This document shows, piece after piece, positions 12,719 to 29,434 of a stretch of 64,000 nt of DNA. Location: NCBI GenBank assembly GCA_026014595.1, contig JAOZHY010000029.1:7135-71134 (forward strand). The letters are read 5' to 3'. The notes under the pieces were generated by a model. It was not told where the DNA came from. It did no database searches and worked only from the letters and a program-made list of their open reading frames with translations. Made by a program: the position numbers and the translations under genes. This DNA comes from Candidatus Bathyarchaeota archaeon. GTDB lineage: Archaea; Thermoproteota; Bathyarchaeia; Bathyarchaeales; Bathycorpusculaceae. Within the stretch, counting starts at the first letter, position 1, and each line of letters begins with the position of its first letter.

Positions 12719-12792
12719 ACCACGTTGCAGATATAGCTTTTACCGTATTCTGGCAGACAGCAAAGCGAACGCTTCAAAAAACAAAACCAGCA

Positions 12793-12985: not shown

Positions 12986-13456
12986 TTAACCCGGCGTTGT
13001 CGGCGTCGTTGTTCCAGTTGAAGCAGGCTGAACGGCGGGTTGCCCAGGAGTTGCAGGCGGCGGCACTGAAGATTGAGGTGGAGGCTGTCCCGTCACGGAC
13101 TGCTCTTGAACCTCCGGCTCTTCTTGTTGAGGTTGCGTCTGGGGGGTGCTGGGTAAAATCTGGATTTTCTCAGCCATCGGATGCAGCAAGTCAGGCGGCG
13201 GATAAGGTGTGTTCAGTATTGAGGCGAGGATGTAGATTGAGTTAAAAACATGCTGGTAGACTGTGAAAAGAACTTGGGGAATGTTCGTTTTCGGGTTCGG
13301 TTCCAACCGTTTCTTAATGTCCGCTGGGTCACCCTCTAACGTCACCACGCCCAACGTCGAATACTTCACGACATTCGGCTTGGTCGTTATAGAAAGATTA
13401 AAGCTAAGCACAACTTTATCTGTGCCCTTTTTCTGCTCGTCAAGCTTGGCGTTCAC
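12986..13456 (-). CDS. hypothetical protein, possible SecB-like fold with P/Q/T-rich tail; true start probably further upstream
   Basis: Alternating beta-strand pattern, then helix and YPPPDLL; frame stays open ~45 codons upstream of GTG 13456 with no ATG/GTG/TTG. Confidence 0.7.
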   Translation of the reverse strand: MNAKLDEQKKGTDKVVLSFNLSITTKPNVVKYSTLGVVTLEGDPADIKKRLEPNPKTNIPQVLFTVYQHVFNSIYILASILNTPYPPPDLLHPMAEKIQILPSTPQTQPQQEEPEVQEQSVTGQPPPQSSVPPPATPGQPAVQPASTGTTTPTTPG

Positions 13457-13650
13457 TTCGAAAAAAAGCTCTTCACCTGGCGCGTGCTGCCCTGTTCTTT
13501 CAGCTTGGAGGCTGTCAATACGAACCGTGACTGTGACGCCTGAAACAGAATATTTCGGGCAGATGATTGATTCCCCTAATCTATTTTGGCTATTTCATAT
13601 TTAACTTTTGTAGATGCTGAATTCATCGCCTCTGTATAATAGAAACTTGG

Positions 13651-14220
13651 CTAGCTGTTGCCGAAATCGGTGTAAACAGCGGGAACTGAAAGCAGCGTCT
13701 CAAACTTGAACGCTCCCGCACCTGCCACGTCGCCCTTCGTATGCAACACTACCTTCTTGGGGATGTCATCCTCGATGTAAACAATAAACTCAACGTTTTT
13801 CCCCAAACCCATACGCTCAAGCTGCTGGGCGCTATCTTTAAACTTCTCAAGCTCTTGAATCTTGCTTCCGATTTTCTCAATCGCCTCAAACAGTATTTCA
13901 GCCTGTCCCTGATCCGTGGAAGAAAGCAAAATGTTGCCTGATTCAACCCAAATCGAAGGCTCGCCTTTCTTCCCCTTGCTCTTTTTCCCAACGGTTTTAT
14001 TCTCAGGAGCATTTTTCTTGGGCGGCCCCCGCACATTTTTCTGCATAGCAGCCGACTTCTGGTACCAATCCTCGTTTTTATGGGCTTCTTCGCAGCTTCG
14101 TAAGAGCGAGCCCAACCATTGGCTGTAATCTTCAAACAAGGCTCGATGCTGCTCCAGTTGGTCAGCTATGTACTCAGCCATTTCCTTTAATGTGGTGAAA
14201 GTTCGAATCTCAGTTCCCAA
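13651..14220 (-). CDS. hypothetical protein (helix-hairpin-helix/coiled coil)
   Basis: 189-aa ORF with GAGGTGA SD-like sequence before TTG start. Confidence 0.75.
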   Translation of the reverse strand: MGTEIRTFTTLKEMAEYIADQLEQHRALFEDYSQWLGSLLRSCEEAHKNEDWYQKSAAMQKNVRGPPKKNAPENKTVGKKSKGKKGEPSIWVESGNILLSSTDQGQAEILFEAIEKIGSKIQELEKFKDSAQQLERMGLGKNVEFIVYIEDDIPKKVVLHTKGDVAGAGAFKFETLLSVPAVYTDFGNS

Positions 14221-14418
14221 GCTATCACCTCATCCTGTATTAATTGGAAGTAATCGAATGCGCTGTTCCAATTTCAACATCATAGGAAAGATAAAATCAG
14301 TTTTTGAAATAATAGGATTTGTGTATTAACTCTGCTACATACTATTCAGTTATGCCTAAGCAGTCACATTGCAAATAATTATAAGGGTAACCTGACAATT
14401 TAGCGGTAGTCTGCAGCT

Positions 14419-14865
14419 TTGAAGAAGCGGAACAGACAACTTTCCCTTATTCAAACTGCGACAAACGACAAAGCAAGAATGACCAGCCTCAAAACGAAGG
14501 TTACAAATTTGAATAGTACAAGCGAATTTGACACGCTGCTATTACAGGCAATCGACGAAACAATACGATATTGCTTAGGCGACATAAACGCGCAGTTAAT
14601 CTACAATTACCTAGAAAGAAAAGGCATTCTCAAACAAGAAATCCCGAAAAAGTTAGACGACTTCGCGATGGAGTTTGAAAATGTGGTGGGTTTTGGAAGA
14701 GGACAAGTTTTGGGAGCAGCCCAGATTATCGAAGAGGCTATCCTTAAAGCGTTTTGCAATAAACTGAAAATTAACTATGTTGAGACCGGCTCACGATATT
14801 TTCCTGAGCAAATCAAAATGATAAAAGAAACCTACCGTAAAGGTTCCTTAAAAAAGGTTAAATGA
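14419..14865 (+). CDS. NitrOD5/DUF3227-like small helical protein
   Basis: LLQAIDETI..LG....IYNYLE..GI...EIP.KLDDF...ENVVG...IIEEAILK pattern; start uncertain. Confidence 0.6.
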   Translation: MKKRNRQLSLIQTATNDKARMTSLKTKVTNLNSTSEFDTLLLQAIDETIRYCLGDINAQLIYNYLERKGILKQEIPKKLDDFAMEFENVVGFGRGQVLGAAQIIEEAILKAFCNKLKINYVETGSRYFPEQIKMIKETYRKGSLKKVK

Positions 14866-14920
14866 TCTGTTGCAGCCACGTCTTTGCTCGCTCATAGAAA
14901 TTCGACCAATAAAGGCGTTC

Positions 14921-15442
14921 CTAAGTGCCTTGCGAAATCACCGAAGCTATCCTTTGTATCTCCTTTGTTATTTGTGACAAGAACTGGATTCGGTTCTCAA
15001 TTTTCCGTTTCTGGGATGCACTGAACTGTTTGAATTTAGGAACAATGTCTCCTATGACTGCTATCAGGAGGTCCCTATTTTTCGGGTCGCTCAGGTCGAT
15101 GAGTTTGAAGCGACCATCCCGGAAAAGTAGTGCTAAGTGTCCTGTGGGATCGACGTTTGCTTGGGCGACGTTTGCCATTTCAGGCGGAAGCACGGATGGT
15201 GAGATGGAAATGGCTGGCACCCATGACTGCATTAGTTTGAGGAGCGAGGCGAAGAACTCGGAAACCAACAGTGCTTCTTCTGACGTCAACTCGCTTATCT
15301 GTCCAACATCATCCGCTACAGCGTTTAGTGCGTCGATGAGTTCTTGGAGGGTGATTTGTTCTTTGTTCGCGGGTGGAGATGGAGTTGCCGTGTAAGATTG
15401 TTCCACTGCCGCCTTCTCTACAATGTTGGTCTCTTGGCTCAT
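14921..15442 (-). CDS. hypothetical protein
   Basis: 173-aa ATG-start ORF with terminal amphipathic helices. Confidence 0.75.
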   Translation of the reverse strand: MSQETNIVEKAAVEQSYTATPSPPANKEQITLQELIDALNAVADDVGQISELTSEEALLVSEFFASLLKLMQSWVPAISISPSVLPPEMANVAQANVDPTGHLALLFRDGRFKLIDLSDPKNRDLLIAVIGDIVPKFKQFSASQKRKIENRIQFLSQITKEIQRIASVISQGT

Positions 15443-15744
15443 TGTTGGTCAATCTTGTTTAGTATGGCTGGAAGAGAAAAATGCTTGTATGTTTCAGGAT
15501 TTACGCACATGGAAATTTTAGATTCTGTTTTCGTTTGGCGCGTGTGCGTTTGTGGTTAAGCGTTTGCGGTTAAGGTATATAATATAACAAGTCGTAATAC
15601 ACAATATTTATATCAGTTTTAAACGAAACAATAAACGGACATACGAGGTGATGCACTCTGAGTTATGGACATCAAGGTCTAAGAGAAAAAACTGAAGTCA
15701 CCAAAATTCAAGAGGTTTCTTCCCTTAGACGAGAAAAATTCAAA

Positions 15745-16680
15745 GTGATGGTGTCTCTGAACAAAGAGCGCCCCATGTCGAAATCACCTCTGTATGAAAA
15801 ATATGATATACAGCGGTACGACCTCCACCCAAACTACAGCTTCGCACATTTGGAAGACATGATTCCCAAGAACACTCCAGAATACCTCGACCACGGGCAG
15901 CACTACGTAGAACGCATCGTAAGAGCACTGTACTACTTTAAACAATGCGCGCTCATCGGTCCTTCAGGGACAGGCAAAACCCATATTGTCTATCTTGTAG
16001 CCGAACTAACGGGCTTGCCTCTCTGGGAAGTAAACTGCGGATTATCAACCTCTTCCTTCGACCTCATCGGGCGGTTCATCGGTCTCGGCAAGGAAAACTG
16101 GGTAGACGGTCTGCTCACTCAGTGGCTCAGGAAAGGCGGCATAATGTACCTCGACGAAGCCAACATGATGAAACAAGACGTCGCCACCAGACTCAACCCC
16201 GTGCTGGACACGCGAGGCCACCTCGTGCTAAACGAGAAAGACAGCGAAGTAATCGAACGCCACAAATACGGCTACATGATCATCAGCATGAACCCCGCCA
16301 CAGCCGAATTCTCAGGAACAAAACCTCTGAACGCCGCCATGCGCAGACGAATGGCTGTTTGGATAAACTTTGACTTCCTCAGCATCGGAGAAAACATTTC
16401 ACCTCACGAAGTAGAGATGCTTCAAAAACGAACCCGAATAGATGAAGACACGGCATACAAAATCATACAGGCTGGTGCAGAGCTGAGGAGACAGTACAAG
16501 GTGGGCGATTTGCCTTACGGTCCGTCTTTAGGTGACTTGATAAACTGGGCTACTTTGGTGCATGACGGAAACACGCCGCTTGCCGCCGCGGAGGAAACGA
16601 TAATCGGGTTAACCAGCGACAACGTCGAAGTTCAAGCTGACGTGAGGCGAGTCATCGAAGCAGTTTTCAACAAACAATAG
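15745..16680 (+). CDS. MoxR-family AAA+ ATPase (CbbQ/NirQ/NorQ-like)
   Basis: Walker A GPSGTGKT, Walker B MYLDEAN, SMNP, PLNAAMRRR; start may be ATG 15775. Confidence 0.92.
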   Translation: MMVSLNKERPMSKSPLYEKYDIQRYDLHPNYSFAHLEDMIPKNTPEYLDHGQHYVERIVRALYYFKQCALIGPSGTGKTHIVYLVAELTGLPLWEVNCGLSTSSFDLIGRFIGLGKENWVDGLLTQWLRKGGIMYLDEANMMKQDVATRLNPVLDTRGHLVLNEKDSEVIERHKYGYMIISMNPATAEFSGTKPLNAAMRRRMAVWINFDFLSIGENISPHEVEMLQKRTRIDEDTAYKIIQAGAELRRQYKVGDLPYGPSLGDLINWATLVHDGNTPLAAAEETIIGLTSDNVEVQADVRRVIEAVFNKQ

Positions 16681-16703
16681 CCATTAACTGCAAGGGAAGC
16701 GGC

Positions 16704-18422
16704 ATGGGATTTCTTGACTATGCATGGAACATCTCAGTTCAAAAAGACAACACTAAAGTGAAGATACTGCAGGATTCAGCCTTAGACCAGCCTACTTTAG
16801 AGCAAGACAGTTACGGGTTTACCGTAAAACTCCCTGCTATTCGCTTCCGCGAAGACGGAAAAATTTCGTATCTTCGGGAAACTTTTCCTCTGAATACGAC
16901 AGGCAGAATTAAAGTAGGGCGCTTGTTCAGGGCGGCGGTCTTGCACCTAACGACACATACGCTGGTTCCACTGCCTGAGGAAAAAATTGCTCCAAAAGCA
17001 TCAGACTCGTTCACCGAGGCATTCGCAAAATCGCTGGTTCGAGATGTTTACGTAAACGCTTGTCTTCAATCGTTATGTCCAGAACGGTTCGTTGATATAG
17101 CGTACGCAAACGCGCTGGCTTTTCATAAACTTAAGCGTGCCGAGAGAATTTTTGCGCCTTCCACACGGGTCATGTCGGCTATACTTTCAAAAGTTAACGT
17201 TGGCATGGTTAAAGGTTCCTTAACAAGGAAGGAGGAGCAAACCGTCAATGCACTGTTTAACGATCTGCTTCAGCTTAAGCAACCGTTCTCCGCGTCTTTG
17301 GCAGGCGAACAAATTAATGTTGAAGAAGTGTTCGATGAAAAAGTCAAAAACATACTGCGCTTGCTTGAGCCATTTGGTCCTTTCTTAGAAGCGCCATCGC
17401 TAAGTTACACTGAGCAGTTGGGGCGTTGCAGTATTTTCACAGAAACTGAAAAGCTCAATGACGCGGAAGTTGAACATGCATTCAAAACATCCATTGAAGC
17501 TCTGGGCGGTTCTGTCCCTCCAGAAGCAGGTATGGAATCTTGTTGGAGGAAAGAGCAAGATGCCGAAGCCCTGCAAGCGTTCGATTCAGAACAGCATGAT
17601 AAAGAGCGCCGAGAAAAAATCCTAGCCAAAATTACGCCATACGTCTCCGCAACGAGGTTTAAGTCTGTAAGTTTTCCGGAAGAAGATTATTCTCAATATC
17701 TAAGGGCAAGACGTTTGGTGCAGGGCGCAAGTCGCAGGCTTCTAGATATTCTACGAAGCGCTTTTAATTATTTAGATGAAAATCCACGGCAAGAAATGGG
17801 TCAGCTGGACCTGCCAGCTGTTATTCAATCGATTGCGAGTAACAAACCAGCCACGGACGTTTTTACTTTGGAAGAGTATCTTAAACCCAGTTTCGCTTGG
17901 TCTATAATCTTTGATGTGAGTCGAAGCATGGGAGTGAAGGGTGAATATGGCCGTGCCCTCGCCATAGCAGTAGCTGAGGCTGCGAAGGAGTTGATGACGG
18001 ATTCTTCTTCATGGACTTTCTTCGCCTTCAGCAATCACTTCTACATCCTTAAGGACAGCAATGAGTCTTACTCCAAAAGAGTAAGAGCTAGAATAGGCGG
18101 ACTCAGGTTTGACGGGCTCACTTACATTCCAGACGCGATTCAGGTGGCTGGAAAGATGCTGGCAAAAAGATTCGAAGAGCAACGATGCTTGATTGTTATT
18201 TCTGACGGCTGGCCACATGGCTATCCGAAAATACCTGCAGTGCTAAAAGAAAGCGTGGACGCCTTGTTAAGGAAAGGCGTTATAGTAATAGGTATAGGTG
18301 TGGAAACCGAGAGGATGGGAGATTTCTTCAGGCTGCATTCCTCGATCTACACGCAAAAGGACCTGATTAACCGGTTCGGCGGCTTGTATGTGGATGCGTC
18401 AGCAAAGGCGCTTGAGACTTGA
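16704..18422 (+). CDS. VWA-domain protein (CbbO/NorD-like MoxR partner)
   Basis: C-terminal MIDAS DVSRSM...T...SDG; 23 bp downstream of the MoxR gene. Confidence 0.88.
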   Translation: MGFLDYAWNISVQKDNTKVKILQDSALDQPTLEQDSYGFTVKLPAIRFREDGKISYLRETFPLNTTGRIKVGRLFRAAVLHLTTHTLVPLPEEKIAPKASDSFTEAFAKSLVRDVYVNACLQSLCPERFVDIAYANALAFHKLKRAERIFAPSTRVMSAILSKVNVGMVKGSLTRKEEQTVNALFNDLLQLKQPFSASLAGEQINVEEVFDEKVKNILRLLEPFGPFLEAPSLSYTEQLGRCSIFTETEKLNDAEVEHAFKTSIEALGGSVPPEAGMESCWRKEQDAEALQAFDSEQHDKERREKILAKITPYVSATRFKSVSFPEEDYSQYLRARRLVQGASRRLLDILRSAFNYLDENPRQEMGQLDLPAVIQSIASNKPATDVFTLEEYLKPSFAWSIIFDVSRSMGVKGEYGRALAIAVAEAAKELMTDSSSWTFFAFSNHFYILKDSNESYSKRVRARIGGLRFDGLTYIPDAIQVAGKMLAKRFEEQRCLIVISDGWPHGYPKIPAVLKESVDALLRKGVIVIGIGVETERMGDFFRLHSSIYTQKDLINRFGGLYVDASAKALET

Positions 18423-18494
18423 GCCGCTTAACGACCATTTTTCTTTCGTGTAAAACATCTTTATGACGGGAGCCTTCGAGAAGTTAACATGGAT

Positions 18495-18506
18495 TCTGGA
18501 TTCAGA
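18495..18506. promoter_or_regulatory. candidate palindromic operator TCTG-N4-CAGA upstream of the trmB-like gene
   Basis: TCTGGATTCAGA just upstream of TATA-like TTATAAAA (18521); related copies at 18567, 21014 and 29551. Confidence 0.4.
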
Positions 18507-18580
18507 TTGACAGGTCGTAATTATAAAATATATATTCAGTCAGAATCAGTGGCACTGCGGTTCGGATTTGGAATCAAAAG

Positions 18581-19522
18581 GTGAAAACTGACATGGAGCT
18601 TGCTATGGAAAAACCCACGGACCTGATAAGGGTTTACGATGGAAAGGCTGATGCATGCAAATTCGTCAAACGAGACAAGGGCTTCAACAAACAACTATCG
18701 GTTGTCGAGGAAACGCTGGCAAGGTTTGGGCTGCTTAAGAACGAGATTAAAGTGTACCTCTATCTAGCCAGAGCATCAGAAAAGAAAGCTGGCGAAATAG
18801 CTGAAGCAATCTCGCTTCACAGGACCGAAACATACCGCATACTGCGCGATTTGGAAAAGAAGGGCATAGTTTTCTCAATTTTTGCAAAACCTTTGAAATT
18901 CACAGCTGTTCCACTGGATAAAGCCATAGATATACTCTTAGATGCCCAAAAAATGAAAATCAAGCTTTTAGAGAAAGAAAAAGCAAGCCTAGTGGAGCTC
19001 TGGCTCTCAATACCTCAGCAGAAAGCGGTGCAGACGAAAAAGGAGCTCTTCCAAATGCTGCAAGGTGAACAACAGGTAGCTCTCAAAGCTGACGAACTGC
19101 TCGAGGGTACAAAAGAGGAGTTTCAAATTTTCGCTCCAGACGACTACTTAGCGCAGTTGTACTACAGCGATTTCACTGACAAGCTGAAAGAGAAACTGGA
19201 CAAAATTAACATAACGCTGCTGACCGAAGATTCGCAGAAAAGCGCATATTTCCTTGAGCAAATGCAATGGCCTCGGAACAAGCGTTACATAGTGAAAACA
19301 CAGAACTTGCCGTGTTTCATGATTTCAGACCGAAAAGAGTTGCTAATCGCCTTCCACGAGAACGAGGCTTCGAACGAAGACGGCGACAAAAAGAAAGACC
19401 GAACCGCAGCAATCTGGACAAACTACACCGCTTTTATCTGGACTTTGCAGATGCTCTTCTCAAAACTTTTAGAAACAGGAGAAGACGCTCATGAAGCAGG
19501 CTCCAAAAAGCAAGCCCGTTAA
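18581..19522 (+). CDS. TrmB-family transcriptional regulator
   Basis: FGLLKNEIKVYLYL...AGEIA...HRTETYRILRDLEKKG wHTH; C-terminal domain FMISDRKEL..AAIWTN. Confidence 0.9.
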   Translation: MKTDMELAMEKPTDLIRVYDGKADACKFVKRDKGFNKQLSVVEETLARFGLLKNEIKVYLYLARASEKKAGEIAEAISLHRTETYRILRDLEKKGIVFSIFAKPLKFTAVPLDKAIDILLDAQKMKIKLLEKEKASLVELWLSIPQQKAVQTKKELFQMLQGEQQVALKADELLEGTKEEFQIFAPDDYLAQLYYSDFTDKLKEKLDKINITLLTEDSQKSAYFLEQMQWPRNKRYIVKTQNLPCFMISDRKELLIAFHENEASNEDGDKKKDRTAAIWTNYTAFIWTLQMLFSKLLETGEDAHEAGSKKQAR

Positions 19523-22073: not shown

Positions 22074-22074
22074 G

Positions 22075-22500
22075 TCAATCCACCATCGCGAGCTGCAGCC
22101 TGACTATGTAAATCGCGTAGTTGCTACTTGTGGCTGCGCACACGTAGTCTGTGGACACTATGTTGTCGCTGACCGCGCTTCCGCTGCAAATCGGCGTGTT
22201 GTTGATGCTGGTCATGTTTTCGTTGAATACGGTTAGGTTAAACCACATGGCAGGGCTGACTGCGGATTGAATGGAGCTTTTGAGTTCGGTCCAGTTGCCG
22301 CTGCTTATCAGTTCCGCTAAATGCCCGTTGCTATCTAGGCTAAGGAGAATGTTCTGGGCTGTAGAAGAGAGCATGTCAAAGGAGCCACCTGGTCTGTTCT
22401 GTGCCGCCGGAATCAGGGTAAGCGATGCAAGCAGAAGCATGGACGCGAAGAAAGCTTCGATGGTGCGGATTTGCCCTTTTTTGTCTTTCAGCAGCCTCAT
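22075..22500 (-). CDS. minor pilin-like protein (class III signal peptide)
   Basis: KDKKG|QIRTIEAFFASMLLL. Confidence 0.78.
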   Translation of the reverse strand: MRLLKDKKGQIRTIEAFFASMLLLASLTLIPAAQNRPGGSFDMLSSTAQNILLSLDSNGHLAELISSGNWTELKSSIQSAVSPAMWFNLTVFNENMTSINNTPICSGSAVSDNIVSTDYVCAATSSNYAIYIVRLQLAMVD

Positions 22501-23540
22501 TGAGCCACATCTCCAAAGGTCAACGTCAGCTTGTAAAAGGCGCCGTTGATGGTTACCACGTAGACGAACACGTTTTCCTCAGAGTTCTCGAAATCTGCCC
22601 CAAACTGCAGCGGAACATCTGGATAAGCAACCCACTCCACGAAAGACGCAGCGCTGGTTTGACCTGAAATGACGGTGACTGTGGGACTTTTGTCCACAAA
22701 CGCGGGAATGGCATAGATGCTGTTTGAGGTTGCTGTGAGGTTTGCTTGGTAAGAGTAAGAGAAAACGTAGCCATCGTTCACGGTTATGTCGAGAACGTTC
22801 TGGCTTACGTTAAGCGTGTGGTTCAGGGAACTTAACCGCAGAAAGGTTTGGTTGGGAGCCGGCGTCTCCGACAAATGAGCAAACGAGTATACCTCATAAG
22901 CAGTCAGTCTTTCATCAGATGTGGCGCGTGCGAACACAATCAGCAGCGCAGGTCCATTAGCCGAGTTTGGAATTTCAAAAGTTGCGTATCCAACGCCTGA
23001 GCTTGACGTGGTGCTGTAAACGTCAGCCAGAAAATCCGTGGCGACCATGTAGCAGTGCAGTCCTGCGCTGACTGACCCTTGCGCTTGACTGACTTGAATC
23101 ATAAAAGTGTACGTTGTGGCGGCTCCTGTGGTGGTGTTGGCGGAGAGCATGACGGCTATTGCCAGCATCTTTGATAGTTTTATGCCCAGCGCCAAGTTGT
23201 TGAGTCGTGCAGCATTGGAAACTTCACCGTAAGAGAGCGCATAACTGCTTTGGCTGTTCAATCGCGTGACTTTATCCACATCAAGGTCGTATGGGTATGA
23301 AGCTTCTCCGCTGTGTAAACCGAAGCTGCTTGGGACAGCGGCACCTGAACCCCAATCTGTTGGACTGCCAAGACTGAACACTATTTGGTCAGCTATCGCT
23401 CTGAGATAGTTTTGCTTGTTCAGGTCCTGCATGCTGTCAATGCGGGTTTGCATGGTTCCAACTAGCGAAGCCGTTGCCAACAGGGCGACTGAGACCAGCA
23501 ATGCACACGCGAAGTAGGTGTCTATGGAAACGGTGGGCAT
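22497..23540 (-). CDS. pilus-associated membrane-anchored protein
   Basis: N-terminal hydrophobic helix, GSPTDWG motif, coupled to next gene by ATGA overlap. Confidence 0.7.
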   Translation of the reverse strand: MPTVSIDTYFACALLVSVALLATASLVGTMQTRIDSMQDLNKQNYLRAIADQIVFSLGSPTDWGSGAAVPSSFGLHSGEASYPYDLDVDKVTRLNSQSSYALSYGEVSNAARLNNLALGIKLSKMLAIAVMLSANTTTGAATTYTFMIQVSQAQGSVSAGLHCYMVATDFLADVYSTTSSSGVGYATFEIPNSANGPALLIVFARATSDERLTAYEVYSFAHLSETPAPNQTFLRLSSLNHTLNVSQNVLDITVNDGYVFSYSYQANLTATSNSIYAIPAFVDKSPTVTVISGQTSAASFVEWVAYPDVPLQFGADFENSEENVFVYVVTINGAFYKLTLTFGDVAQ

Positions 23541-23556
23541 GTTTTCCTCCCTCGGG

Positions 23557-25071
23557 CTATCCTGCCATAGACGCCATAGATATGCCGAACATGCCTGAGA
23601 GCAGCTGCTGAGATGCTATCAGAGACAGGTACGCGGTTGCGGTCAGCAATGCAGCGTACTGGAATCCGGCGCCGAAGTTGCCTTCGCTTATCTTTCCGAT
23701 GAAGAAGCCTGAGATCCAGCACTGGAGAATTATGCCCACGGAAAACATTCTTATCTGGTCCTGCATGGCCATGAAAGCGACTTCGGACAGGCTTGTTGTC
23801 ACCACCGTGGTCATCATGTACGTGGTTAAAGACACAATCGTCGTTGTCACGGCTATGAGAATGCTCCATATGAACGCTAAAACGATGTAGGGTCTGAGCA
23901 GCCCGCGCCTGTTGATTTGCAGTTCGCGTTCTTTCTCGCTGTACTCAGAGAGTATCTCAAGCGACTCTGTCGAATTTCCGCCAACCTCGACGGTTTCAAC
24001 CATCATAGCGAAGTTTAAGGTGACGAACCAGCTTCGTATCTCCCGACGTATGTTGCTGAAAGTTTTTCTAAGCGGAACACCCCACTCGATTTGGCTGCGC
24101 ATGAGTTCTAGGAATTTTGAGAATGGGCCGTAATCTTTGCGTTTTGTGGCTTGGATGATGCTTTTTTCAGGAGAAAGCCCTATTTTTTGCGATTCGGTGA
24201 CGTCTCGGATGAAGCTTGGAATCGAGTCTTCAGCGTTATAGTTGATTTTTGCGATTCTTCTGTACTGGATGGCGGGCAGCAAAGAAGCAGCTACCAGTCC
24301 TATCGTGACGATTTCTGGCAGACCCACAGGCTTCATAGCCTCGGATAAGGATGGTACCAGAACGAAGACTAATAACACTACGCCGACTGCTGCTATGATG
24401 ACTGCTGCTTTTTTGTACAGGTCCTGCAGGTTTTCGAAAGCGCTTCTCTGCATGTTGTGTGCAACCATTATGAAGATGAGCGACAGCACGGGCATGAAAA
24501 GGAACGCTATTAGATACGAGATGATGGGCGATACCGATAGGGAGCTCTGGGACATGACATCCATCACGTTGGTTGAGGAGAAGACCACAAAGAGAATGTA
24601 CGTGCACAGCACCACGATAAGCATGACCGTGTAAGCTTCAACCAGCGTGGCTATTTTCTCGACGGAGCGGGTTAACGCGTTGTGCCTAAGCTCAAAAATG
24701 GCTTTCAGCTCGCTTCTCATGTAGTCCACTATCTTTCCCCCGCTTCGCACGGATGAGATGAACCCGCCAAGGAAGTTTCTGTACAGCTTCGAGTTTGTTT
24801 TCTCCGCCCGCTGGTACATGACGGTCAAGGGGTCTTTGCCCAAGACTTCCACTTGCCTTACGACTTCGTCAGCTTCCTTTCTAAAAGTGGGTAGGAACGA
24901 GAGTTTCCGCATTTTCTTCCAACTCTCATATGGTGAGACTCCGCTTGCCGCCATCAGCGTGAAAATCATAACCACGAAGGGCAGTTCATGCTCGATTTTC
25001 TCCTTCTCCTCACTGGTGGCTCTCGACAGAAAACCTAAAGCTTTGCCGAAGAAGCCGCCTTGCGTCTTCAT
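23557..25071 (-). CDS. type IV pilus/archaellum membrane platform protein (TadC/FlaJ-like, two T2SS-F domains)
   Basis: ELPFVV..LMAASGVSP and IPSFIRDV..SQKIGLSP duplicated T2SSF domains, multi-TM. Confidence 0.9.
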   Translation of the reverse strand: MKTQGGFFGKALGFLSRATSEEKEKIEHELPFVVMIFTLMAASGVSPYESWKKMRKLSFLPTFRKEADEVVRQVEVLGKDPLTVMYQRAEKTNSKLYRNFLGGFISSVRSGGKIVDYMRSELKAIFELRHNALTRSVEKIATLVEAYTVMLIVVLCTYILFVVFSSTNVMDVMSQSSLSVSPIISYLIAFLFMPVLSLIFIMVAHNMQRSAFENLQDLYKKAAVIIAAVGVVLLVFVLVPSLSEAMKPVGLPEIVTIGLVAASLLPAIQYRRIAKINYNAEDSIPSFIRDVTESQKIGLSPEKSIIQATKRKDYGPFSKFLELMRSQIEWGVPLRKTFSNIRREIRSWFVTLNFAMMVETVEVGGNSTESLEILSEYSEKERELQINRRGLLRPYIVLAFIWSILIAVTTTIVSLTTYMMTTVVTTSLSEVAFMAMQDQIRMFSVGIILQCWISGFFIGKISEGNFGAGFQYAALLTATAYLSLIASQQLLSGMFGISMASMAG

Positions 25072-25075
25072 TTGT

Positions 25076-26656
25076 TTACGGCTCCTGAACGGTTTCTTTG
25101 TCTTCTAAGTCTTGCACGTTAAGCGAGCTGTTCAATGCTTTATGCACGCTTCTGAAGTCGCGGAGGTTCTTTTCAACCATTTTCAGCAGGATATGCTTCC
25201 GTCTCTCCAGTTCTTGAATGACTACGCTTAATGGTACGTCGAGGTTTTTGGCTATTTTATTCAGCAGATAGCTCTGGTCCACTTTCTGCTGGAAAGTTTC
25301 CGCTGACGGGTTCCACAAGAACACATCGTTAATCGCGCCGTTTGGGTCTATTTCTGAGACTCTGACGAATTTGCGGCTTGAAACCTTCTTATCCAGTGCT
25401 GCGAAGCCTGGGGTTTTCACCTGTTTGACAACTATGACGCAGTTCATTAGTGGCAAGATTCCTTGGGGGATGTTCATGGGAGGCTGGGTTAAACGTTTCA
25501 TAACTGATTCAACGTCTTCAGCGTGCATGGTGCAGAGCCCGCCGTGTCCCGTGGCTAAGGCTTGGAAGAGCACGTAGGCTTCTTCACCTCTGATTTCTCC
25601 GACTAGGATAAGTGCAGGGCGGTGTCGCACTGCTGATTTGATGAGGTCATACAGGGTTACTTCGCCTTCGCTGTCGCCGCCGAATCCTGGTCTGGCGATT
25701 GTTGATACCCAGTTTTCCTGCGGGAGGTTTACCTCAGCAACTTCTTCAACCGAGATAATTTTGAAGTCGGGTCTTACGAGGCATGCGATGGCGTTTAGCG
25801 CGGTAGTTTTTCCTGCGCCTGTTGGACCGACTATCATCACTGACATTTTGCTTTCCATCAGCATCCACAGGTAAGCGCCGATTGCCTCGTCTATGGTTTC
25901 GTTCATTATCAGGTCCACGATGGTCATGGGGTCTTCTTTGAATTTCCTGATGGTGAAGCTGGTTCCGGCGGGTGTTGTTTCTTTTCCGAAAGATACGGCG
26001 AGTCTGTGTTTTCCCGGGAGCGTCACGTCTACGATTGGGTGGGCGATGCTGACGTGTTTGCCTTGCCTGTGCACTATCCTCGTTATGAAGTCGTCTAGTT
26101 CCTCCTCGTCAGTGAAGATTATGTTGGTTCTTGCGTTCTCGTATTTTCTGTGCCACAGGTAGACGGGCTTGTTTACGCCTAGGCAACTGATGTCTTCGAT
26201 GAAGGGGTCGCAGATTAAGGCGTCGATTTTTCCGTAGCCAATCAAGTCTCGTTCGAGATAATGGCGGATTTTTCTCAGTCCAATCTGGTCGATTCCCTCA
26301 AGCGCTGTTTGGTGCTCTTCGATTATGCCGGGCAACTGTCTGTGGAATGACTCGGCGAGGGTTTCGTCTGACCGTGGCGCCTTCAACTCGTATTCCAGAA
26401 TGTTCTTCAACCGCTTGTAGGCATCTCTTTCCTCTCTAGACATCGTGAGTTCGTCGACGACGTAGAAGTAGCTGCCGTCGGATTCGTCTTGGAATATCCA
26501 CGCGTATGAATAGGGCGGTTTAAGAGGGTAACTTTCGACTTGAACGTATCCTTCGGGAACTCGGCAGCCTTGGATGCCCAGGTACCCGATTATTTCTTCT
26601 TCCGAAATTTTTTCTTCTTCTTCAATTTCTTCTTTTTTCTTTTTTCCAAACGGCAT
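25076..26656 (-). CDS. type IV pilus assembly ATPase (VirB11/TadA/FlaI family)
   Basis: DPFIEDISC, FTIRKF, GPTGAGKTT, SVEEVAE, VGEIRGEEA, TGHGGLCTMHA. Confidence 0.95.
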   Translation of the reverse strand: MPFGKKKKEEIEEEEKISEEEIIGYLGIQGCRVPEGYVQVESYPLKPPYSYAWIFQDESDGSYFYVVDELTMSREERDAYKRLKNILEYELKAPRSDETLAESFHRQLPGIIEEHQTALEGIDQIGLRKIRHYLERDLIGYGKIDALICDPFIEDISCLGVNKPVYLWHRKYENARTNIIFTDEEELDDFITRIVHRQGKHVSIAHPIVDVTLPGKHRLAVSFGKETTPAGTSFTIRKFKEDPMTIVDLIMNETIDEAIGAYLWMLMESKMSVMIVGPTGAGKTTALNAIACLVRPDFKIISVEEVAEVNLPQENWVSTIARPGFGGDSEGEVTLYDLIKSAVRHRPALILVGEIRGEEAYVLFQALATGHGGLCTMHAEDVESVMKRLTQPPMNIPQGILPLMNCVIVVKQVKTPGFAALDKKVSSRKFVRVSEIDPNGAINDVFLWNPSAETFQQKVDQSYLLNKIAKNLDVPLSVVIQELERRKHILLKMVEKNLRDFRSVHKALNSSLNVQDLEDKETVQEP

Positions 26657-26657
26657 T

Positions 26658-27104
26658 TCAACTGCCTCCAGAAAGCGTAAGGTAAACGCCTGAACCGTCA
26701 GAGTAGCATTCCAATTTGGCTGCGCCTAAGCCACTCGTGTAGGTGCCAGATGCGAAGACTTCAGTAGGTATGTAGGCTCGTTGTTGGTTGACCGTGGGCG
26801 TGGTGCCGAAGCCTGCTTCAACCCATGCTCTTGATGAGTCGTTCTTGATTTGAATCCAGTATCTTTGGTCTCCGATTGAGGGTGGCAGCGTTAAGCTCAG
26901 GGTTGCGGTCAAGTTGTCTGCTTTCGCGCGTGAGGTGAGTTCTAAGCTTTCTGTTGCAATGTACTCCGCTATGTTTGCAAGCTGCTGTTGCTTAGCCTCA
27001 TTCTTCACGCTGAGCGTTGAAAGCCCGCACGCGCAGATGACGATGGAGCCCACGATGAGTGAGGCGAAGAGCGTGTACATGTAGCTTGGGATTATTGACG
27101 GCAA
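26658..27104 (-). CDS. pilin-like accessory protein
   Basis: Likely TTG start 27104 after GAGGT; N-terminal hydrophobic helix, then amphipathic helix and beta domain. Confidence 0.7.
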   Translation of the reverse strand: MPSIIPSYMYTLFASLIVGSIVICACGLSTLSVKNEAKQQQLANIAEYIATESLELTSRAKADNLTATLSLTLPPSIGDQRYWIQIKNDSSRAWVEAGFGTTPTVNQQRAYIPTEVFASGTYTSGLGAAKLECYSDGSGVYLTLSGGS

Positions 27105-27106
27105 CT

Positions 27107-27943
27107 TTACCTCAGCCACCTTTGGATTCTGACGTTGCAGAGCACTGTTTCCACGTTTACTATTGCGCCGTTGCTGGTGCTTGAAACTGGGATGGTGACT
27201 TGCCCGCTGGCGCCATCCAAGTTCGCGGTTAACGTTAAGCTTTCAGGTTCGTATGAGAGGTCGTAGGTTGTGGTTGATATTTGCGTGGCGACGCATGAGA
27301 TTTTCAGCGGCACCTTTCCGTACAGCGCGATTGCGTCTGAAGCGTTCAGGTTGATGATGTAAACGCGGATGTTGTTGACGGTCTTGCCGTTTTCAGTGCC
27401 CGCGGTTGCGTAAGACACGGTTGGGCGGTAGCGCAGCAGGATTTCGGGATGTTCAGCGCCGTGAACGATGTAGAGCTGTGTCATTACAGAGCCGCTTTGG
27501 CTGACTATGGTTCGGCTGTCGCCTTTTAGGAAAAGTCCTGTGTCAGGCGACTCGGAATATGGAAGGACGTAGCTGACTTGACCTATGGTTTCGTTGCAGA
27601 CGGTCGCGGCGATGTCTCCGCCGTCACCGATGCTAATTGCCAGGGTGTTGGCGGATGGCTGAATGTTTACTTGTCCGCCTGAATCGCTGAACTCGAACGT
27701 GCGGGCTGCGCCAGGCTGCCCTATGACCTGCATCAAGGCATCGTCTAAAGACAGCATGTCCTGTTTCGCCGTGGCTATCTTGAGCGTGGTGCTTCGGGTG
27801 TTAACTTTTTCCACCGCGAAGTAGTAGGTGATGGAAATTACGCCTAGCATGGATACGAATAGTAGTAGGAAAGTTATTGGAATGGCAATTGCTCTCATGG
27901 ATCGACGAAGTTTTGCTAAGCGATAGTCGTTTGGGGCAGTCAT
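27107..27943 (-). CDS. minor pilin-like protein (class III signal peptide)
   Basis: Likely start ATG 27943; LRRSMRA|IAIPITFLLLF. Confidence 0.72.
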   Translation of the reverse strand: MTAPNDYRLAKLRRSMRAIAIPITFLLLFVSMLGVISITYYFAVEKVNTRSTTLKIATAKQDMLSLDDALMQVIGQPGAARTFEFSDSGGQVNIQPSANTLAISIGDGGDIAATVCNETIGQVSYVLPYSESPDTGLFLKGDSRTIVSQSGSVMTQLYIVHGAEHPEILLRYRPTVSYATAGTENGKTVNNIRVYIINLNASDAIALYGKVPLKISCVATQISTTTYDLSYEPESLTLTANLDGASGQVTIPVSSTSNGAIVNVETVLCNVRIQRWLR

Positions 27944-28185
27944 CAATTTGTGGTCTCTTCCGTGAGCCATTCGCTGAGAAAATGTTGGGAGAAATGAATT
28001 AAGTTGTTTGTGTGTAACATCAAAATACATATTGTACGGGGAAATCCAGCTTGTGAACAAGTTTCTCGAGATTGTAACCATTTATTAATTCAACTTCATC
28101 TTGCTGAGAGGTCATCTATCCTCATGTCTTGTTTTTGCAAAAGAAAAAGAGAAAAAAATATTCAGAGCTGCTTTTGCTTCTAAGC

Positions 28186-28749
28186 TTACACTACTGCTTC
28201 GACGTTGGTCTCTTTGTAGTGGATTGCCTGCGAAGTGAACACCGTGATAGCAACAGTCAAGCCTATGTCGTTGACGTTAATGCTGTCAGGGTTGTTGAGG
28301 TATATGGCCATTGTTGAGCCTGAAGTCAGCACCAGGGTATTTGTTCCTAATGCCGTAAGGCCATCGCTGGTAATACCTCCAACAATGTCATCACCAGCTA
28401 TTTTCGCAGCGCCTGTCCAGTTGAGGTCTGTCGTTAGGACATCGCCAGTTCCAGCAACAACGTAGAATATGTCAGCTGCGGCGGCAGCCTGTCCACGCAC
28501 CGCAATTTTGCTGATGACGACGTCTCTACCACCAGTGTTTGTGACCATTATTGCAGCTACTGCTGTCCCGGCTTGATTTACCCAGATATGTTGTTTCGAC
28601 AGCGACAAATTTTCTTCCTGAACTCTGGTGCTAGTGACGTTGATGGCGAAGTATGTTACGACTCCGGCTAAGAGCACTGAAACCACTAGAATTATCAGCG
28701 TTGTTACGACGGTGCTAAGAGCCAAACGATTCTTCAGTATGTTTTTCAT
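28186..28749 (-). CDS. major type IV pilin/archaellin-like protein 2
   Basis: KNRLA|LSTVVTTLIILVVSVLLAG; paralog of 28874..29434. Confidence 0.88.
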   Translation of the reverse strand: MKNILKNRLALSTVVTTLIILVVSVLLAGVVTYFAINVTSTRVQEENLSLSKQHIWVNQAGTAVAAIMVTNTGGRDVVISKIAVRGQAAAAADIFYVVAGTGDVLTTDLNWTGAAKIAGDDIVGGITSDGLTALGTNTLVLTSGSTMAIYLNNPDSINVNDIGLTVAITVFTSQAIHYKETNVEAVV

Positions 28750-28873
28750 TTTTTTGTCTCCTGAAAAAACAAGAAAGACGGCTTTGGATAAGTGAATTTG
28801 TGTGTAGAACAGAGCTACACATAAATTATGGAAAAAACTAATTGCGCAAATAGAAGGAAAATAAGCGGTGGCT

Positions 28874-29434
28874 TTATGGCATTACGGTTGCTTCGACATT
28901 AGCTTCTTGGTAGTGAACGGCGTTAGACGTGTAGATGGCTATGCTTACAGTCAAGCCCACATCATTAATCGATATGCTGTCCGGGTCATCAATGTAGATT
29001 ATTACGGTGTAGCCTGACTTCAATATGAGGTCGGTGGATGCTGCGCTGAAGGCGTATGATGTTCCACCAATGGATATGTCCCCTGCTCCCAAAGTTGACG
29101 ATGAATTATACGTGAGGTCAGCGGATATTGCACCTGTTGTAATATTGTAGCACACCTTGGCCCATGGTGATTCCTGTCCTCTGACGCTAATTTTGTCTAA
29201 GACTACGTCTCGTCCGCCCGTGTTTATTATCATTATAGCCGCTTGTCCTCCGTTTACGGGATCATACCATACATGTTGTTTTGTCAAGTGCAGACTTTCT
29301 TCCTGCACTCTAGTGCTGACGACGTTTGTGGCGTAGTATACGACCACGGTTGCTAACAGTACTGAAACGACTAGAATGATTAGTGTGGTTACGACTGTGC
29401 TTAGAGCTAGGCGATTCCTTAGCAGTTTGTTCAT
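28874..29434 (-). CDS. major type IV pilin/archaellin-like protein 1
   Basis: RNRLA|LSTVVTTLIILVVSVLLAT; GGTGA SD; TATA-like TTTATAA near 29474-29480. Confidence 0.88.
   Translation of the reverse strand: MNKLLRNRLALSTVVTTLIILVVSVLLATVVVYYATNVVSTRVQEESLHLTKQHVWYDPVNGGQAAIMIINTGGRDVVLDKISVRGQESPWAKVCYNITTGAISADLTYNSSSTLGAGDISIGGTSYAFSAASTDLILKSGYTVIIYIDDPDSISINDVGLTVSIAIYTSNAVHYQEANVEATVMP

Follow-up and report, generated by a model that had tools for sequence, protein, structure and literature searches.

The window, a stretch of 64,000 nucleotides from a Candidatus Bathyarchaeota archaeon, carries a Bathyarchaeial pilus locus whose orthologues, as judged from sequence comparison, are the 'subclade 4A' pili of Thaumarchaeota, which have the same accessory module. 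That it encodes a type IV pilus (T4P) of this thaumarchaeal kind is highly probable, and the module is very likely coupled functionally to the pilus. The block at 12986-29434 is proposed to form a single functional unit of two transcription blocks. The explanation as a whole, in which pilus and module act as one unit and a MoxR/VWA pair remodels the pilus machine, stands in our estimate at an even chance. The new part is the Bathyarchaeial occurrence; the kind itself is catalogued and uncharacterised.

Pilus operon and accessory module

The first transcription block would be a non-archaellum type IV pilus operon, read on the minus strand from 29434 to 19519 and encoding two major pilins, five minor pilin-like proteins, an assembly ATPase, a platform protein and an anchored surface protein:

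28874-29434, minus: g18, major-pilin candidate, paralogue of g17, 186 aa (Pilin_N)
28186-28749, minus: g17, major-pilin candidate, 187 aa (Pilin_N)
27107-28081, minus: g16, pilin-like, 324-aa ORF, single N-terminal hydrophobic helix; upstream of the ATPase
26658-27119, minus: g15, pilin-like, 153 aa, single N-terminal hydrophobic helix; upstream of the ATPase
25076-26656, minus: g14, pilus assembly ATPase, VirB11/GspE-type, T2SSE (PF00437, E 4e-34)
23557-25071, minus: g13, polytopic platform protein, TadC/PilC, T2SSF (PF00482, E 1e-22, two stretches); multiple membrane segments
22497-23540, minus: g12, pilin-like, 347 aa, single N-terminal hydrophobic helix
22075-22500, minus: g11, pilin-like, 141 aa, single N-terminal hydrophobic helix; weak DUF7288 match
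21294-22073, minus: g10, pilin-like, 259 aa, single N-terminal hydrophobic helix
20959-21168: g09, doubtful ORF, 69 aa
19519-20877, minus: g08, surface protein, 452 aa, with signal peptide, about seven ~50-aa repeats and C-terminal membrane anchor

The Pilin_N matches of g17 and g18 are weaker than the cut-off (E 4e-4 and 3e-3); phmmer matches both proteins to arCOG03871-type pilins of Nitrosopumilaceae (E 1e-9 to 5e-19). Their N-termini read MKNILKNRLA|LSTVVTTLIILVV..., and a 174-nt direct repeat is common to the two genes at 74% identity. Among the pilin-like proteins, g10 and g11 present G|Q class-III-like cleavage motifs, and the order g10-g11-g12 is kept across all Bathyarchaeial relatives compared. 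Conservation of g16 begins near residue 55, and the g15/g16 region (26658..28081) has a weak DUF7266 match. The surface protein g08, whose repeats appear propeller-like, corresponds to the anchored beta-propeller of the first-pass annotation: signal peptide, repeats and C-terminal anchor were all found. In most arrangement-A loci it is placed between TrmB and the pilus genes.

The second transcription block would be a cytoplasmic accessory module (12986-19522), with g04-g02-g01 and MoxR-VWA-TrmB on opposite strands:

18581-19522, plus: g07, TrmB-family transcription regulator, arCOG02037 type (PF01978, E 2e-14); convergent with the pilus operon
16704-18422, plus: g06, VWA partner, NorD-like, 572 aa, arCOG02900 (PF13519, E 4e-7)
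15745-16680, plus: g05, MoxR-class AAA+ ATPase of NorQ/CbbQ type, AAA_5 + CbbQ_C (PF07728, E 1e-20; PF08406, E 6e-13)
14921-15442, minus: g04, cytoplasmic, 173 aa, distantly related to arCOG11534
14419-14865, plus: g03, 148 aa, low GC (0.389)
13651-14220, minus: g02, cytoplasmic, 189 aa, homologue of arCOG11968
12986-13456, minus: g01, cytoplasmic, 156 aa, homologue of thaumarchaeal arCOG05517

None of the seven proteins g01 to g07 has a predicted membrane segment, including the four small ORFs at 12986-15442. Collectively, profile searches with membrane-segment and signal predictions bear out the gene content first listed for the block. As was also observed then, the block itself holds neither a FlaH/ArlH (KaiC/ArlH) gene nor a prepilin peptidase. 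When the contigs of the genome were searched, a prepilin peptidase gene was located on another contig (C12), and the best KaiC-like matches on C17, on C8 and at C32:75114-75614, the last one outside the window.

Other features of the first-pass annotation did not hold. The repeat copies thought to bracket the block (12793 and 29634) have no partner at 29634: a ~90-nt repeat lies at 12801-12890, with further copies at 33259, 44607 (minus strand) and 63907, and local alignment of 12781-12940 with 29601-29765 scored 11, when shuffled sequences averaged 10.6. The block is more AT-rich, as described, than its 5-12 kb flank (GC 0.571), but not than the genome (0.480 in the block, 0.484 in the genome); since the two latter values are equal, it is the flank that is the outlier, and block, flank and genome GC give no compositional sign of an island. 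The 'NitrOD5-like' g03 did not match PF11537 even at E<=1; two genomic paralogues (C36, C27; 35-38% identity) have sub-threshold NitrOD5 matches. Relatives of g03 are few among the loci compared (L032/L159, L118 and L199 only). It stands outside the conserved module and has probably been inserted recently.

Relationship to thaumarchaeal subclade 4A pili

At the thaumarchaeal pilus loci of subclade 4A, Makarova, Koonin and Albers (2016) found a "strongly linked" MoxR/GvpN–vWA pair; the T4P there come with a GvpN-like ATPase (arCOG00441, to which g05 belongs) and a vWA protein (arCOG02900); their table includes TrmB plus three small proteins, which are homologues of g01, g02 and, distantly, g04 (PMC4858521). 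The MoxR–pilus pairing in ammonia-oxidising archaea has been catalogued since that work, and the system, initially taken for undescribed, falls in a clade already catalogued there with nearly the same accessory content. The record for that clade comes from comparative genomics only.

The g14 protein matches A. fulgidus GspE (2oap, E 2e-100) and FlaI (E 3e-64) among PDB entries and is 46% identical to the Nitrosopumilus AR2 ATPase. In an IQ-TREE phylogeny, the MoxR-linked ATPases of 10 Bathyarchaeial loci form one clade (100/98), sister (98/97) to four MoxR-linked Nitrosopumilaceae ATPases (100/100), and paralogous ATPases from the same genomes fall outside these clades. On this evidence g14 is taken as the orthologue of the MoxR-linked Nitrosopumilaceae ATPase. 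MoxR is the best conserved of all system proteins, at 59-61% identity between g05 and the Nitrosopumilaceae proteins vs 46% for the pilus ATPase, and g07 is 34% identical over its full length to the TrmB of the Nitrosopumilaceae locus.

Linkage and co-occurrence of the module with the pilus

The linkage of MoxR/VWA and TrmB to pilus genes recurs in many genomes of Bathyarchaeia and in Nitrosopumilaceae, in several rearranged gene orders, as seen at loci seeded with either VWA or the ATPase. At least five different gene orders hold g01, g02, g04, MoxR, VWA, TrmB and the pilus genes together; in Nitrosopumilaceae the order is TrmB-g02-g04-[pilin-like]-g01-MoxR-VWA-pilin-ATPase-platform, and in a third family (G389) 8 kb separate the ATPase from the module. 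On the other hand, in roughly one half of the nearest Bathyarchaeial species g04-MoxR-VWA lies more than 10 kb from any pilus gene. In a MoxR-seeded sample with full flanks, 27 loci were linked to pilus genes and 25 were not, and at least six genomes have the gene sets split over different long contigs. The two sets therefore need not be transcribed together, and linkage by itself is weaker evidence than it first appears.

In a Bathyarchaeial order sample, all 21 VWA-positive genomes carry an ATPase orthologue at >=62% identity and the 20 VWA-negative ones (92-100% complete) only paralogues, with a best match of <=47% in 20/20, while among 81 Nitrosopumilaceae genomes 20 have both genes, 2 VWA only, 2 the ATPase only and 57 neither; these counts overstate the number of events, because related genomes are not independent. 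The four Nitrosopumilaceae exceptions are half-deleted loci (G012, G060) and fragmented assemblies (G415, G425). Furthermore, co-occurrence persists in genomes that have the two gene sets on separate contigs, and both VWA states are found within single genera (g4, g21). These comparisons support a functional affiliation of the AAA+/VWA pair and TrmB with the pilus, which stands up to the refutation by unlinked genes named in the first-pass annotation.

TrmB and a candidate operator

TrmB adjoins the pilus genes in nearly all relatives, and a palindrome recurs upstream of three genes:

18495-18506: palindrome TCTGGATTCAGA, candidate operator, 75 nt upstream of trmB
21014-21025: palindrome TCTGGAATCAGA, 137 nt upstream of g08, inside the doubtful ORF g09
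29551-29562: palindrome copy (TGTGGATTCAGA on the minus strand), 117 nt upstream of the first pilin gene

A scan of 27 loci (507 kb, <=1 mismatch) gave 15 sites, of which 9 precede trmB, g08 or the first pilin gene by a fixed distance. Copies with at most one mismatch lie at the same distance from trmB (-67 to -75) in L006, L043 and L046, and the first-pilin site is found at -116 to -121 in L002, L006 and L113; the exact motif was seen in closer relatives only. Conservation of the palindrome at these promoters gives indirect support to TrmB control, in which TrmB binding to TCTGGAWTCAGA at its own, the first-pilin and the g08 promoters would set expression.

Proteins of the module

The Walker A (GPSGTGKT) and Walker B (YLDEA) motifs of g05 do not vary in 37 homologues, and its PDB matches are NorQ (E 1e-23) and CbbQ (E 4e-21). 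In g06, a ~370-aa N-terminal region outside known families precedes a C-terminal VWA domain with intact MIDAS; D404, S406, S408 and D501 are invariant in 39 homologues, and position 473 is T or S. The profile of g06 matches NorD (9qhd_G, E 9e-11) across the VWA domain.

The small proteins g01, g02 and g04 have no recognisable family. A ~90-aa beta/alpha core in g01 (AF2 pLDDT >90, residues 1-90), with weak SecB-like fold matches (Z 5.4 and 4.9), is followed by a disordered P/T/Q-rich tail; homologues adjoin MoxR in Bathyarchaeia and Nitrosopumilaceae (phmmer). In g02, an alignment of 28 sequences from both classes delimits a helical N-terminal part (invariant G37 and R41) and a C-terminal alpha/beta part, joined by a Lys-rich linker that varies in length, and its ESM Atlas matches are only hypothetical clusters from Bathyarchaeota and Nitrososphaerota. 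The predicted fold of g04 (AF2 mean pLDDT 86.5) runs long helix, small 4-stranded sheet, long helix, and a fold search gave no significant match. No gene is linked more tightly to MoxR-VWA in Bathyarchaeia than g04, which remains beside MoxR even at loci without pilus genes.

Possible role of the MoxR/VWA pair

We infer that the pair most likely works as a chaperone that uses ATP to remodel the pilus machine. From homology and intact Walker and MIDAS motifs, the MoxR hexamer and its VWA adaptor would form a NorQ/NorD-like or CbbQ/CbbO-like remodelling machine. Its client would be a cytoplasmically exposed part of its own pilus machine (ATPase, platform protein or assembly intermediate), which the pair may mature, activate or dismantle, with g01, g02 and g04 as possible adaptors or co-clients. 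Direct action of the pair on the machine, as opposed to regulation of expression, is a tentative view, to which we give slightly less than an even chance.

A regulatory device is a less probable option: VWA, MoxR, g01, g02 and g04 would then act as a post-translational switch on TrmB, pilin-mRNA or protein levels. This agrees with the 'alternative regulatory pathway' of Makarova et al., who suggested a regulatory role for the thaumarchaeal vWA, which shares arCOG02900 with ArnB (PMC4858521). TrmB is constantly found in the neighbourhood, a second TrmB and a KaiC-like ATPase are present in addition at Nitrosopumilaceae loci, that of N. koreensis AR1 also has CheY-like and histidine-kinase genes, and the long Lys-rich linker of g02 could bind nucleic acid. 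However, g06 is nearer to NorD than to any ArnB entry, with no ArnB chain among its matches at E<=1, and domain searches of the block found no FHA partner (ArnA). At unlinked loci, moreover, TrmB remains beside the pilus genes while g04-MoxR-VWA move elsewhere, and the invariant ATPase/MIDAS motifs, like the very strong conservation of MoxR, are in keeping with a mechanical enzyme that has a structural client.

It is improbable that the pair is instead a missing force generator or disassembly factor that brings about filament retraction by extracting or dismantling subunits or the motor. We know of no PilT homologue in archaea. In favour of this reading, Aap pili of archaea are able to retract although no ATPase is dedicated to that step (PMC11178785), and they are placed in subclade 4A (PMC4858521). 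The pair strictly co-occurs with one ATPase clade, whose members have in common an N-terminal 'GKKK-acidic-L..(F/Y)L' peptide, absent from paralogues, that could be a docking site. To our knowledge, however, no MoxR-class ATPase works in this way. Moreover, Aap pili retract even though the passages of PMC4858521 used here state no MoxR/VWA pair for the Sulfolobus aap locus.

Finally, a purely historical association, with the pair and small proteins serving another client such as a metallo-enzyme, would fit the loci lacking nearby pilus genes and the characterised relatives NorQD and CbbQO, which mature enzymes according to PDB titles, but is very improbable given co-occurrence per genome that holds in two classes, inside genera and where the gene sets are unlinked, linkage that survives at least five rearrangements, loci that decay as a unit, no such pair at the other T4P loci of the genome and no RuBisCO large subunit found in it (89%-complete).

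One point speaks against remodelling of the pilus machine by the MoxR/VWA pair: the known NorQ/CbbQ-type pairs have metallo-enzymes or RuBisCO as clients, not secretion machines.

Organization of the pilus locus

The block at 12986-29434 contains a pilus operon and a convergent group of MoxR, VWA and TrmB genes, and the ORF map and Pfam scans of the block reproduced the gene list of the first-pass annotation:

12986-13456, minus strand: g01, small cytoplasmic protein
13651-14220, minus strand: g02, small cytoplasmic protein
14419-14865, plus strand: g03, small cytoplasmic protein, inserted among g01, g02 and g04 on the opposite strand
14921-15442, minus strand: g04, small cytoplasmic protein; g04, g02 and g01 are divergent from MoxR
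15745-16680, plus strand: g05, MoxR ATPase with AAA_5 and CbbQ_C domains
16704-18422, plus strand: g06, VWA protein of 572 aa
18581-19522, plus strand: g07, TrmB regulator; g05 to g07 are convergent with the pilus operon
19519-20877, minus strand: g08, 452-aa protein with a signal peptide, about seven repeats of about 50 aa and a C-terminal anchor
between g08 and g13, minus strand: g10, g11 and g12, pilin-like proteins
23557-25071, minus strand: g13, platform protein
25076-26656, minus strand: g14, pilus ATPase
between g14 and 29434, minus strand: g15 and g16, pilin-like proteins; g17 and g18, paralogous pilins and major-pilin candidates, whose genes have a 174-nt direct repeat in common

Reading from 29434 to 19519, the order of the minus-strand operon is g18, g17, g16, g15, g14, g13, g12, g11, g10 and g08. 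The ATPase g14 is of the VirB11/GspE assembly type (PF00437, T2SSE, E 4e-34; PDB 2oap, E 2e-100) and adjoins g13, a polytopic TadC/PilC platform protein with multiple membrane segments (PF00482, T2SSF, E 1e-22, two stretches). Each of the seven pilins and pilin-like proteins has a single hydrophobic helix, located at the N-terminus, in keeping with archaeal type IV pilins (putative class III signal peptide and hydrophobic N-terminal helix); the Pilin_N matches of g17 and g18 are below the cut-off (E 4e-4 and 3e-3). No membrane segment was found in any of g01 to g07, and Pfam searches at E<=5 gave nothing usable for g01-g04, g08, g10-g12 and g16. The source genome (Bathyarchaeia, 2.06 Mb, 89% complete) encodes a single prepilin peptidase, outside the block (PF01478, contig C12, 11232-11594, 53 bits), and three secretion ATPases, with the MoxR/VWA pair near only g14.

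Like the archaellum, the locus is part of the type IV filament superfamily, and its Nitrosopumilaceae relatives have KaiC-like and response-regulator genes nearby. However, the block has no ArlH, ArlCDE/X, ArlF/G set, prepilin peptidase or che genes, no block ORF has an archaellum domain and PF06745 (KaiC-like) is absent from both block and window, in agreement with the earlier statement that this is not a canonical archaellum. Its composition of ATPase, TadC and pilins, without ArlH or ArlCDE/X, is instead that of the Sulfolobus Aap pili (subclade 4A) and of archaeal adhesion pili, but the Aap locus is described as simple, whereas the present clade has a six-gene cytoplasmic module consisting of g01, g02, g04, MoxR, VWA and TrmB.

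Two points of the first-pass description did not stand. The block is not an AT-rich island (GC 0.480 against 0.484 for the genome), and the supposed bracketing repeats do not bracket it: the approximately 90-nt repeat at 12801-12890 (+) has copies at 33259-33340 (+), 44607-44694 (-) and 63907-63996 (+), and none at 29634. These four intergenic repeats of about 80-90 nt are 85-89% identical across the shared core and correspond to no Rfam family at gathering scores. A separate 39-nt similarity, unlike the repeat at 12.8 kb, occurs between 29700-29738 and 39797-39835 (29/39 ungapped). The compositional outlier is the flank at 5001-12000, with a GC content of 0.54-0.61 against the genome mean of 0.484. 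Scans for tRNA genes and Rfam families across the window returned no matches. Of the sequencing runs listed for 15745-25700, all were DNA runs with small shares of it, with no RNA run among them. The TraX-family gene bordering the block at 12017-12718 was considered as a member of the unit and rejected; it is beside the module in no relative examined, and the A05DMB-2 contig, at 98% identity, is no exception.

The locus is a Bathyarchaeial branch of a catalogued pilus clade

The association of a MoxR/vWA pair with pilus genes has been reported in Thaumarchaeota by Makarova, Koonin and Albers (2016, Front Microbiol 7:667; PMC4858521), with example loci in Nitrosopumilus sp. AR2 (NC_018656, 769749-783231) and N. 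koreensis AR1. In its Supplementary Table S4, the AR2 locus runs from TrmB (arCOG02037) through arCOG11968, arCOG11534, pilin-like genes and arCOG05517 to a MoxR-like GvpN (arCOG00441), a vWFA protein (arCOG02900), a pilin and a FlaI-family ATPase; the discussion in the paper concerns the MoxR/vWA pair only, TrmB and the small proteins being table entries (PMC4858521). The Nitrosopumilaceae loci retrieved with our VWA query match the AR2 locus gene length for gene length, and one of them (L087) matches it gene for gene. The module proteins find their counterparts there: phmmer gave E values of about 1e-135 for MoxR and about 1e-40 for VWA, and g01, g02 and, distantly, g04 are related to arCOG05517, arCOG11968 and arCOG11534, respectively, which are also their positional counterparts (E 1e-13 to 1e-3, phmmer and family alignments A1-A3).

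The first-pass annotation had suggested an ATPase phylogeny as a check. In the maximum-likelihood tree, the MoxR-linked Bathyarchaeial clade (100/98) is sister (98/97) to the MoxR-linked Nitrosopumilaceae (100/100), and the other ATPases from the same genomes, in both lineages, fall outside these clades. Besides the orthologous assembly ATPase, the loci of the two classes have in common the same module (MoxR, VWA, TrmB and homologues of the three small proteins), a layout with a small gene divergent from MoxR-VWA, and related pilins of the arCOG03871 type. In Nitrososphaera gargensis, the archaellum genes FlaB/D/G/F/H/J/I and che genes form a separate locus, according to the 2016 paper (PMC4858521), and g14 matches A. 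fulgidus GspE more closely (E 2e-100) than it does FlaI (E 3e-64), so the two classes share an adhesion-type pilus clade.

The two sets of loci differ in their accessory parts. The Bathyarchaeial locus has its own minor pilin-like set (g10-g12, g15, g16), no homologue of which was detected in the thaumarchaeal loci, and where these loci encode the arCOG11936 surface protein of ~880 aa it has g08; it lacks the KaiC-like ATPase, the second TrmB and the prepilin peptidase, and its pilus operon is convergent with the module whereas the thaumarchaeal one is co-directional. When the surface protein, peptidase and KaiC-like ATPase of one Nitrosopumilaceae locus (L124) were used as tblastn queries, none had a match in the window, and the only match in the Bathyarchaeial loci was a peptidase in L008; elsewhere in the source genome, C12 carries the peptidase and C17 a KaiC-like gene of 24% identity. 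These three proteins are accessory parts that do not define the kind. In L124 (1346-2083, minus strand) and 16 other Nitrosopumilaceae loci, a 245-aa, ArlH-sized KaiC-like ATPase is constantly beside the first TrmB, and it has no counterpart in the Bathyarchaeial loci.

The module was already present in the common ancestor of the two classes, or was exchanged early. The description of the system as undescribed does not hold, since the association was published for the sister class in 2016 (PMC4858521); the clade is already catalogued, but the catalogued kind is experimentally untouched, and a full-text literature search found no later papers on these arCOGs or on the MoxR/vWA-pilus association. 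The locus is a real and coherent Bathyarchaeial addition to that kind. What is added here is the Bathyarchaeial branch, the six-gene membership, a genome-wide co-occurrence and a candidate TrmB operator.

Linkage and co-occurrence of the module and the pilus genes

Linkage was examined from three independent seeds, namely the ATPase, VWA and MoxR. Among the ATPase-seeded loci, the pilus core from g16 to g10 is kept in all Bathyarchaeial relatives; TrmB adjoins it, as do VWA and MoxR where contig extent permits. In locus L004, the MoxR/VWA pair is found 7-9 kb upstream on the same contig (loci L112/L174). The VWA-seeded loci carry g04-MoxR-VWA with g01, g02, TrmB and pilus genes in at least five different gene orders, among them the convergent order of the window, one with g02 between VWA and TrmB, and one with the pilus operon inverted and TrmB directly before the pilins. 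Linkage of MoxR/VWA and TrmB with pilus genes in other genomes, and in several orders, means that the first-pass inference survives the refutation test proposed with it. The MoxR-seeded sample consisted of the 79 closest species representatives, and linkage was scored where the 10-kb flanks were complete: pilus genes were present in 27 loci and absent in 25. When the flanks were extended, at least six genomes were seen to carry the module and pilus sets on separate long contigs. Therefore, physical linkage is frequent and ancient but not obligatory. Three loci in MAGs with unrelated labels, L171 (Nanoarchaeia), L190 (Limnocylindrales) and L005 (Krumholzibacteriaceae), have MoxR/ATPase genes 67-92% identical to the Bathyarchaeial ones and are probably mis-binned contigs.

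The phyletic pattern is stronger evidence than linkage. The VWA gene was found in 41 of the 401 sampled genomes of the phylum. All 21 VWA-positive Bathyarchaeial genomes have a g14 orthologue (62-100% identity, at least 645 bits), whereas the 20 VWA-negative genomes tested from the same order (92-100% complete) have paralogues only (at most 47% identity and 496 bits). Both states are seen inside single genera, and the co-occurrence holds even where module and pilus genes are unlinked. Among 81 Nitrosopumilaceae genomes, 20 have both genes (19 without genome G449, on which no conclusion rests), two VWA only, two the ATPase only and 57 neither. The four exceptions are cases of decay or assembly artefacts: a half-deleted locus in G012 (L153) keeps only the ATPase, the platform protein, a broken surface protein, the peptidase and TrmB2; another in G060 (L080) is reduced to a pilin, the VWA gene and a MoxR with a frameshift; the module of G415 sits on a 3.9-kb contig; and G425 is an 80%-complete assembly of 280 contigs. 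Since related genomes are not independent, all these counts describe the pattern and do not prove it.

A candidate operator for TrmB

The palindrome TCTGGAWTCAGA (at most one mismatch) has four copies in the 64-kb window, three of them within the block, at these distances upstream of a gene:

trmB: 75 nt
g08: 137 nt
first pilin gene: 117 nt

Across 27 Bathyarchaeial loci (507 kb), 9 of 15 sites are located within 300 nt upstream of trmB, the first pilin or g08, in related loci and with the motif seen in closer relatives only. The spacing is similar between loci, from -67 to -75 before trmB and from -116 to -121 before the first pilin (four loci each). This distribution fits a candidate TrmB operator with autoregulation.

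Proteins of the module

Conservation within the system is highest in MoxR, which has more than 100 invariant columns between Bathyarchaeia and Nitrosopumilaceae (alignment A5) and Walker A and B motifs invariant in 37 homologues. Identity between the two classes is 59-61% for MoxR, 46% for the pilus ATPase, 34% for TrmB and 19-26% for the VWA protein; a value for MoxR above that of the pilus ATPase is unusual for an accessory factor. Its PDB matches include NorQ (E 1e-23) and CbbQ (E 4e-21). Midasin (E 8e-57) was discarded as the closest relative because its score sums four AAA stretches, NorQ being nearer per domain. In the VWA protein, the VWA domain is C-terminal as in NorD, which the family profile matches with E 9e-11, and the MIDAS motif (DxSxS...T/S...D) is conserved in 39 homologues, D404, S406, S408 and D501 being invariant and position 473 being T or S.

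The three small proteins of the module belong to no described family, and the ESM Atlas returned only hypothetical clusters. The confident part of the g01 model has three strands and two helices, followed by a disordered tail. Its VIA-align matches to the SecB-like Rv1957 (Z 5.4, 84 residues, rmsd 3.5) and to SecB (Z 4.9) are weak and below the meaningful level of the tool, and Foldseek found nothing at E<=0.001 (SecB-like match, E 0.07), so this resemblance serves as a lead only. The g04 model (pLDDT 86) has a small sheet of four strands between a first helix of 43 residues and a second of 53, with no significant structural neighbour in Foldseek and with long coiled coils only in VIA-align (Z<=5.7); a prefoldin-like helix-sheet-helix topology was dropped since the fold searches did not recover it. 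Some Bathyarchaeial loci carry g04 genes of two subfamilies, one divergent from MoxR and the other adjoining g02 (for example, L116, 3940-4593 and 8969-9499; L119, 7348-7860 and 11990-12607), and Nitrosopumilaceae have only the latter. In g02, the N-terminal part is helical and conserved, and a Lys-rich linker, which varies in length, connects it to an alpha/beta part at the C-terminus. Complex prediction for g04 with g02 (alignments A3 and A2) scored 0.00 against a mark of 0.32 and is uninformative either way.

The fourth small protein, g03, is not a module member: its gene has a GC content of 0.389 and few relatives carry a homologue. It had been called NitrOD5-like, but has no PF11537 match at E<=1; its paralogues in the source genome, at C27:178465-178695 and C36:104403-104636, score 23 and 17 bits, respectively, where the cut-off is 27. 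The C36 copy is between the two other secretion-ATPase loci of the genome.

Possible role of the MoxR/VWA pair

The pair is of the NorQD/CbbQO class, with its AAA+ and MIDAS motifs intact, is cytoplasmic and is co-inherited with one pilus clade. NorQ/NorD is a nitric oxide reductase maturation pair and CbbQ/CbbO a RuBisCO activase pair. As in both, an AAA_5 and CbbQ_C ATPase with intact Walker A and B motifs adjoins a partner of about 570-650 aa with a C-terminal VWA/MIDAS domain, and the solved chains that match best are NorQ for g05, judged by single domains, and NorD for g06. Unlike in those systems, no solved structure matches the first ~370 residues of g06, and the genomic partner is a pilus system with three family-less small proteins. 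The MoxR/VWA pair would remodel a cytoplasmically exposed part of its pilus machine, g01, g02 and g04 may be its adaptors or co-clients, and TrmB would set transcription. We favour such direct action on the pilus machine, giving it close to an even chance.

The main alternative is a regulatory switch like ArnB, which acts in archaellum repression in Sulfolobus acidocaldarius. ArnB is likewise a vWA protein of the cytoplasm with a tie to a type IV filament, and the 2016 paper assigns it to the same arCOG02900; according to that paper, ArnB acts together with kinases and an FHA protein, its gene lies outside type IV pilus loci and it has no MoxR partner (PMC4858521). No FHA domain of the ArnA type is present in the block, and no ArnB structure matched g06 at E<=1 among the PDB sequence matches. 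Direct action is preferred over this switch, which we regard as rather unlikely, because the solved relatives of the pair are remodellers of protein complexes, because NorD is closer to g06 than any ArnB entry is, because MoxR is under unusually strong constraint and because, where the sets are separated, TrmB stays with the pilus genes while g04-MoxR-VWA move away.

To our knowledge, archaea have no PilT. Since Aap pili nevertheless retract (PMC11178785), a retraction or disassembly role, as a special case of direct action, is attractive but improbable. It is also favoured by the N-terminal peptide "GKKK-acidic-L..(F/Y)L", which is common to the ATPases of the linked clade and absent from their paralogues in the same genomes; the peptide is a possible docking site. 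The N-terminus of g14 is encoded at 26570-26656. That the MoxR/VWA pair serves an unrelated client is very improbable. No RuBisCO large subunit was found in the block or in the 89%-complete genome.

Direct action can be formulated more boldly, though we hold this version to be doubtful: g04, g02, g01, MoxR and VWA, a strictly co-inherited set, could constitute a new kind of cytoplasmic accessory machine for a type IV filament, with an AAA+/MIDAS remodeller acting directly on the pilus motor. Such a machine would be needed for the ATPase-platform complex to be assembled or activated, or would dismantle it and thus drive retraction without PilT. If true, MoxR ATPases would gain a class of client that has never been shown for them.

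We know of no accessory motor or retraction ATPase for archaeal type IV pili, and of no cytoplasmic partners for most archaeal pilus machines. Bathyarchaeia and ammonia-oxidising Nitrososphaeria are abundant classes that are uncultured or hard to grow, and in both of them one pilus clade is always accompanied by an intact AAA+/MIDAS pair plus three proteins of no known family. These proteins form a sharply defined, testable candidate set for the assembly, control or take-down of these pili, and they suggest a wider range of clients to look for among MoxR-VWA systems.
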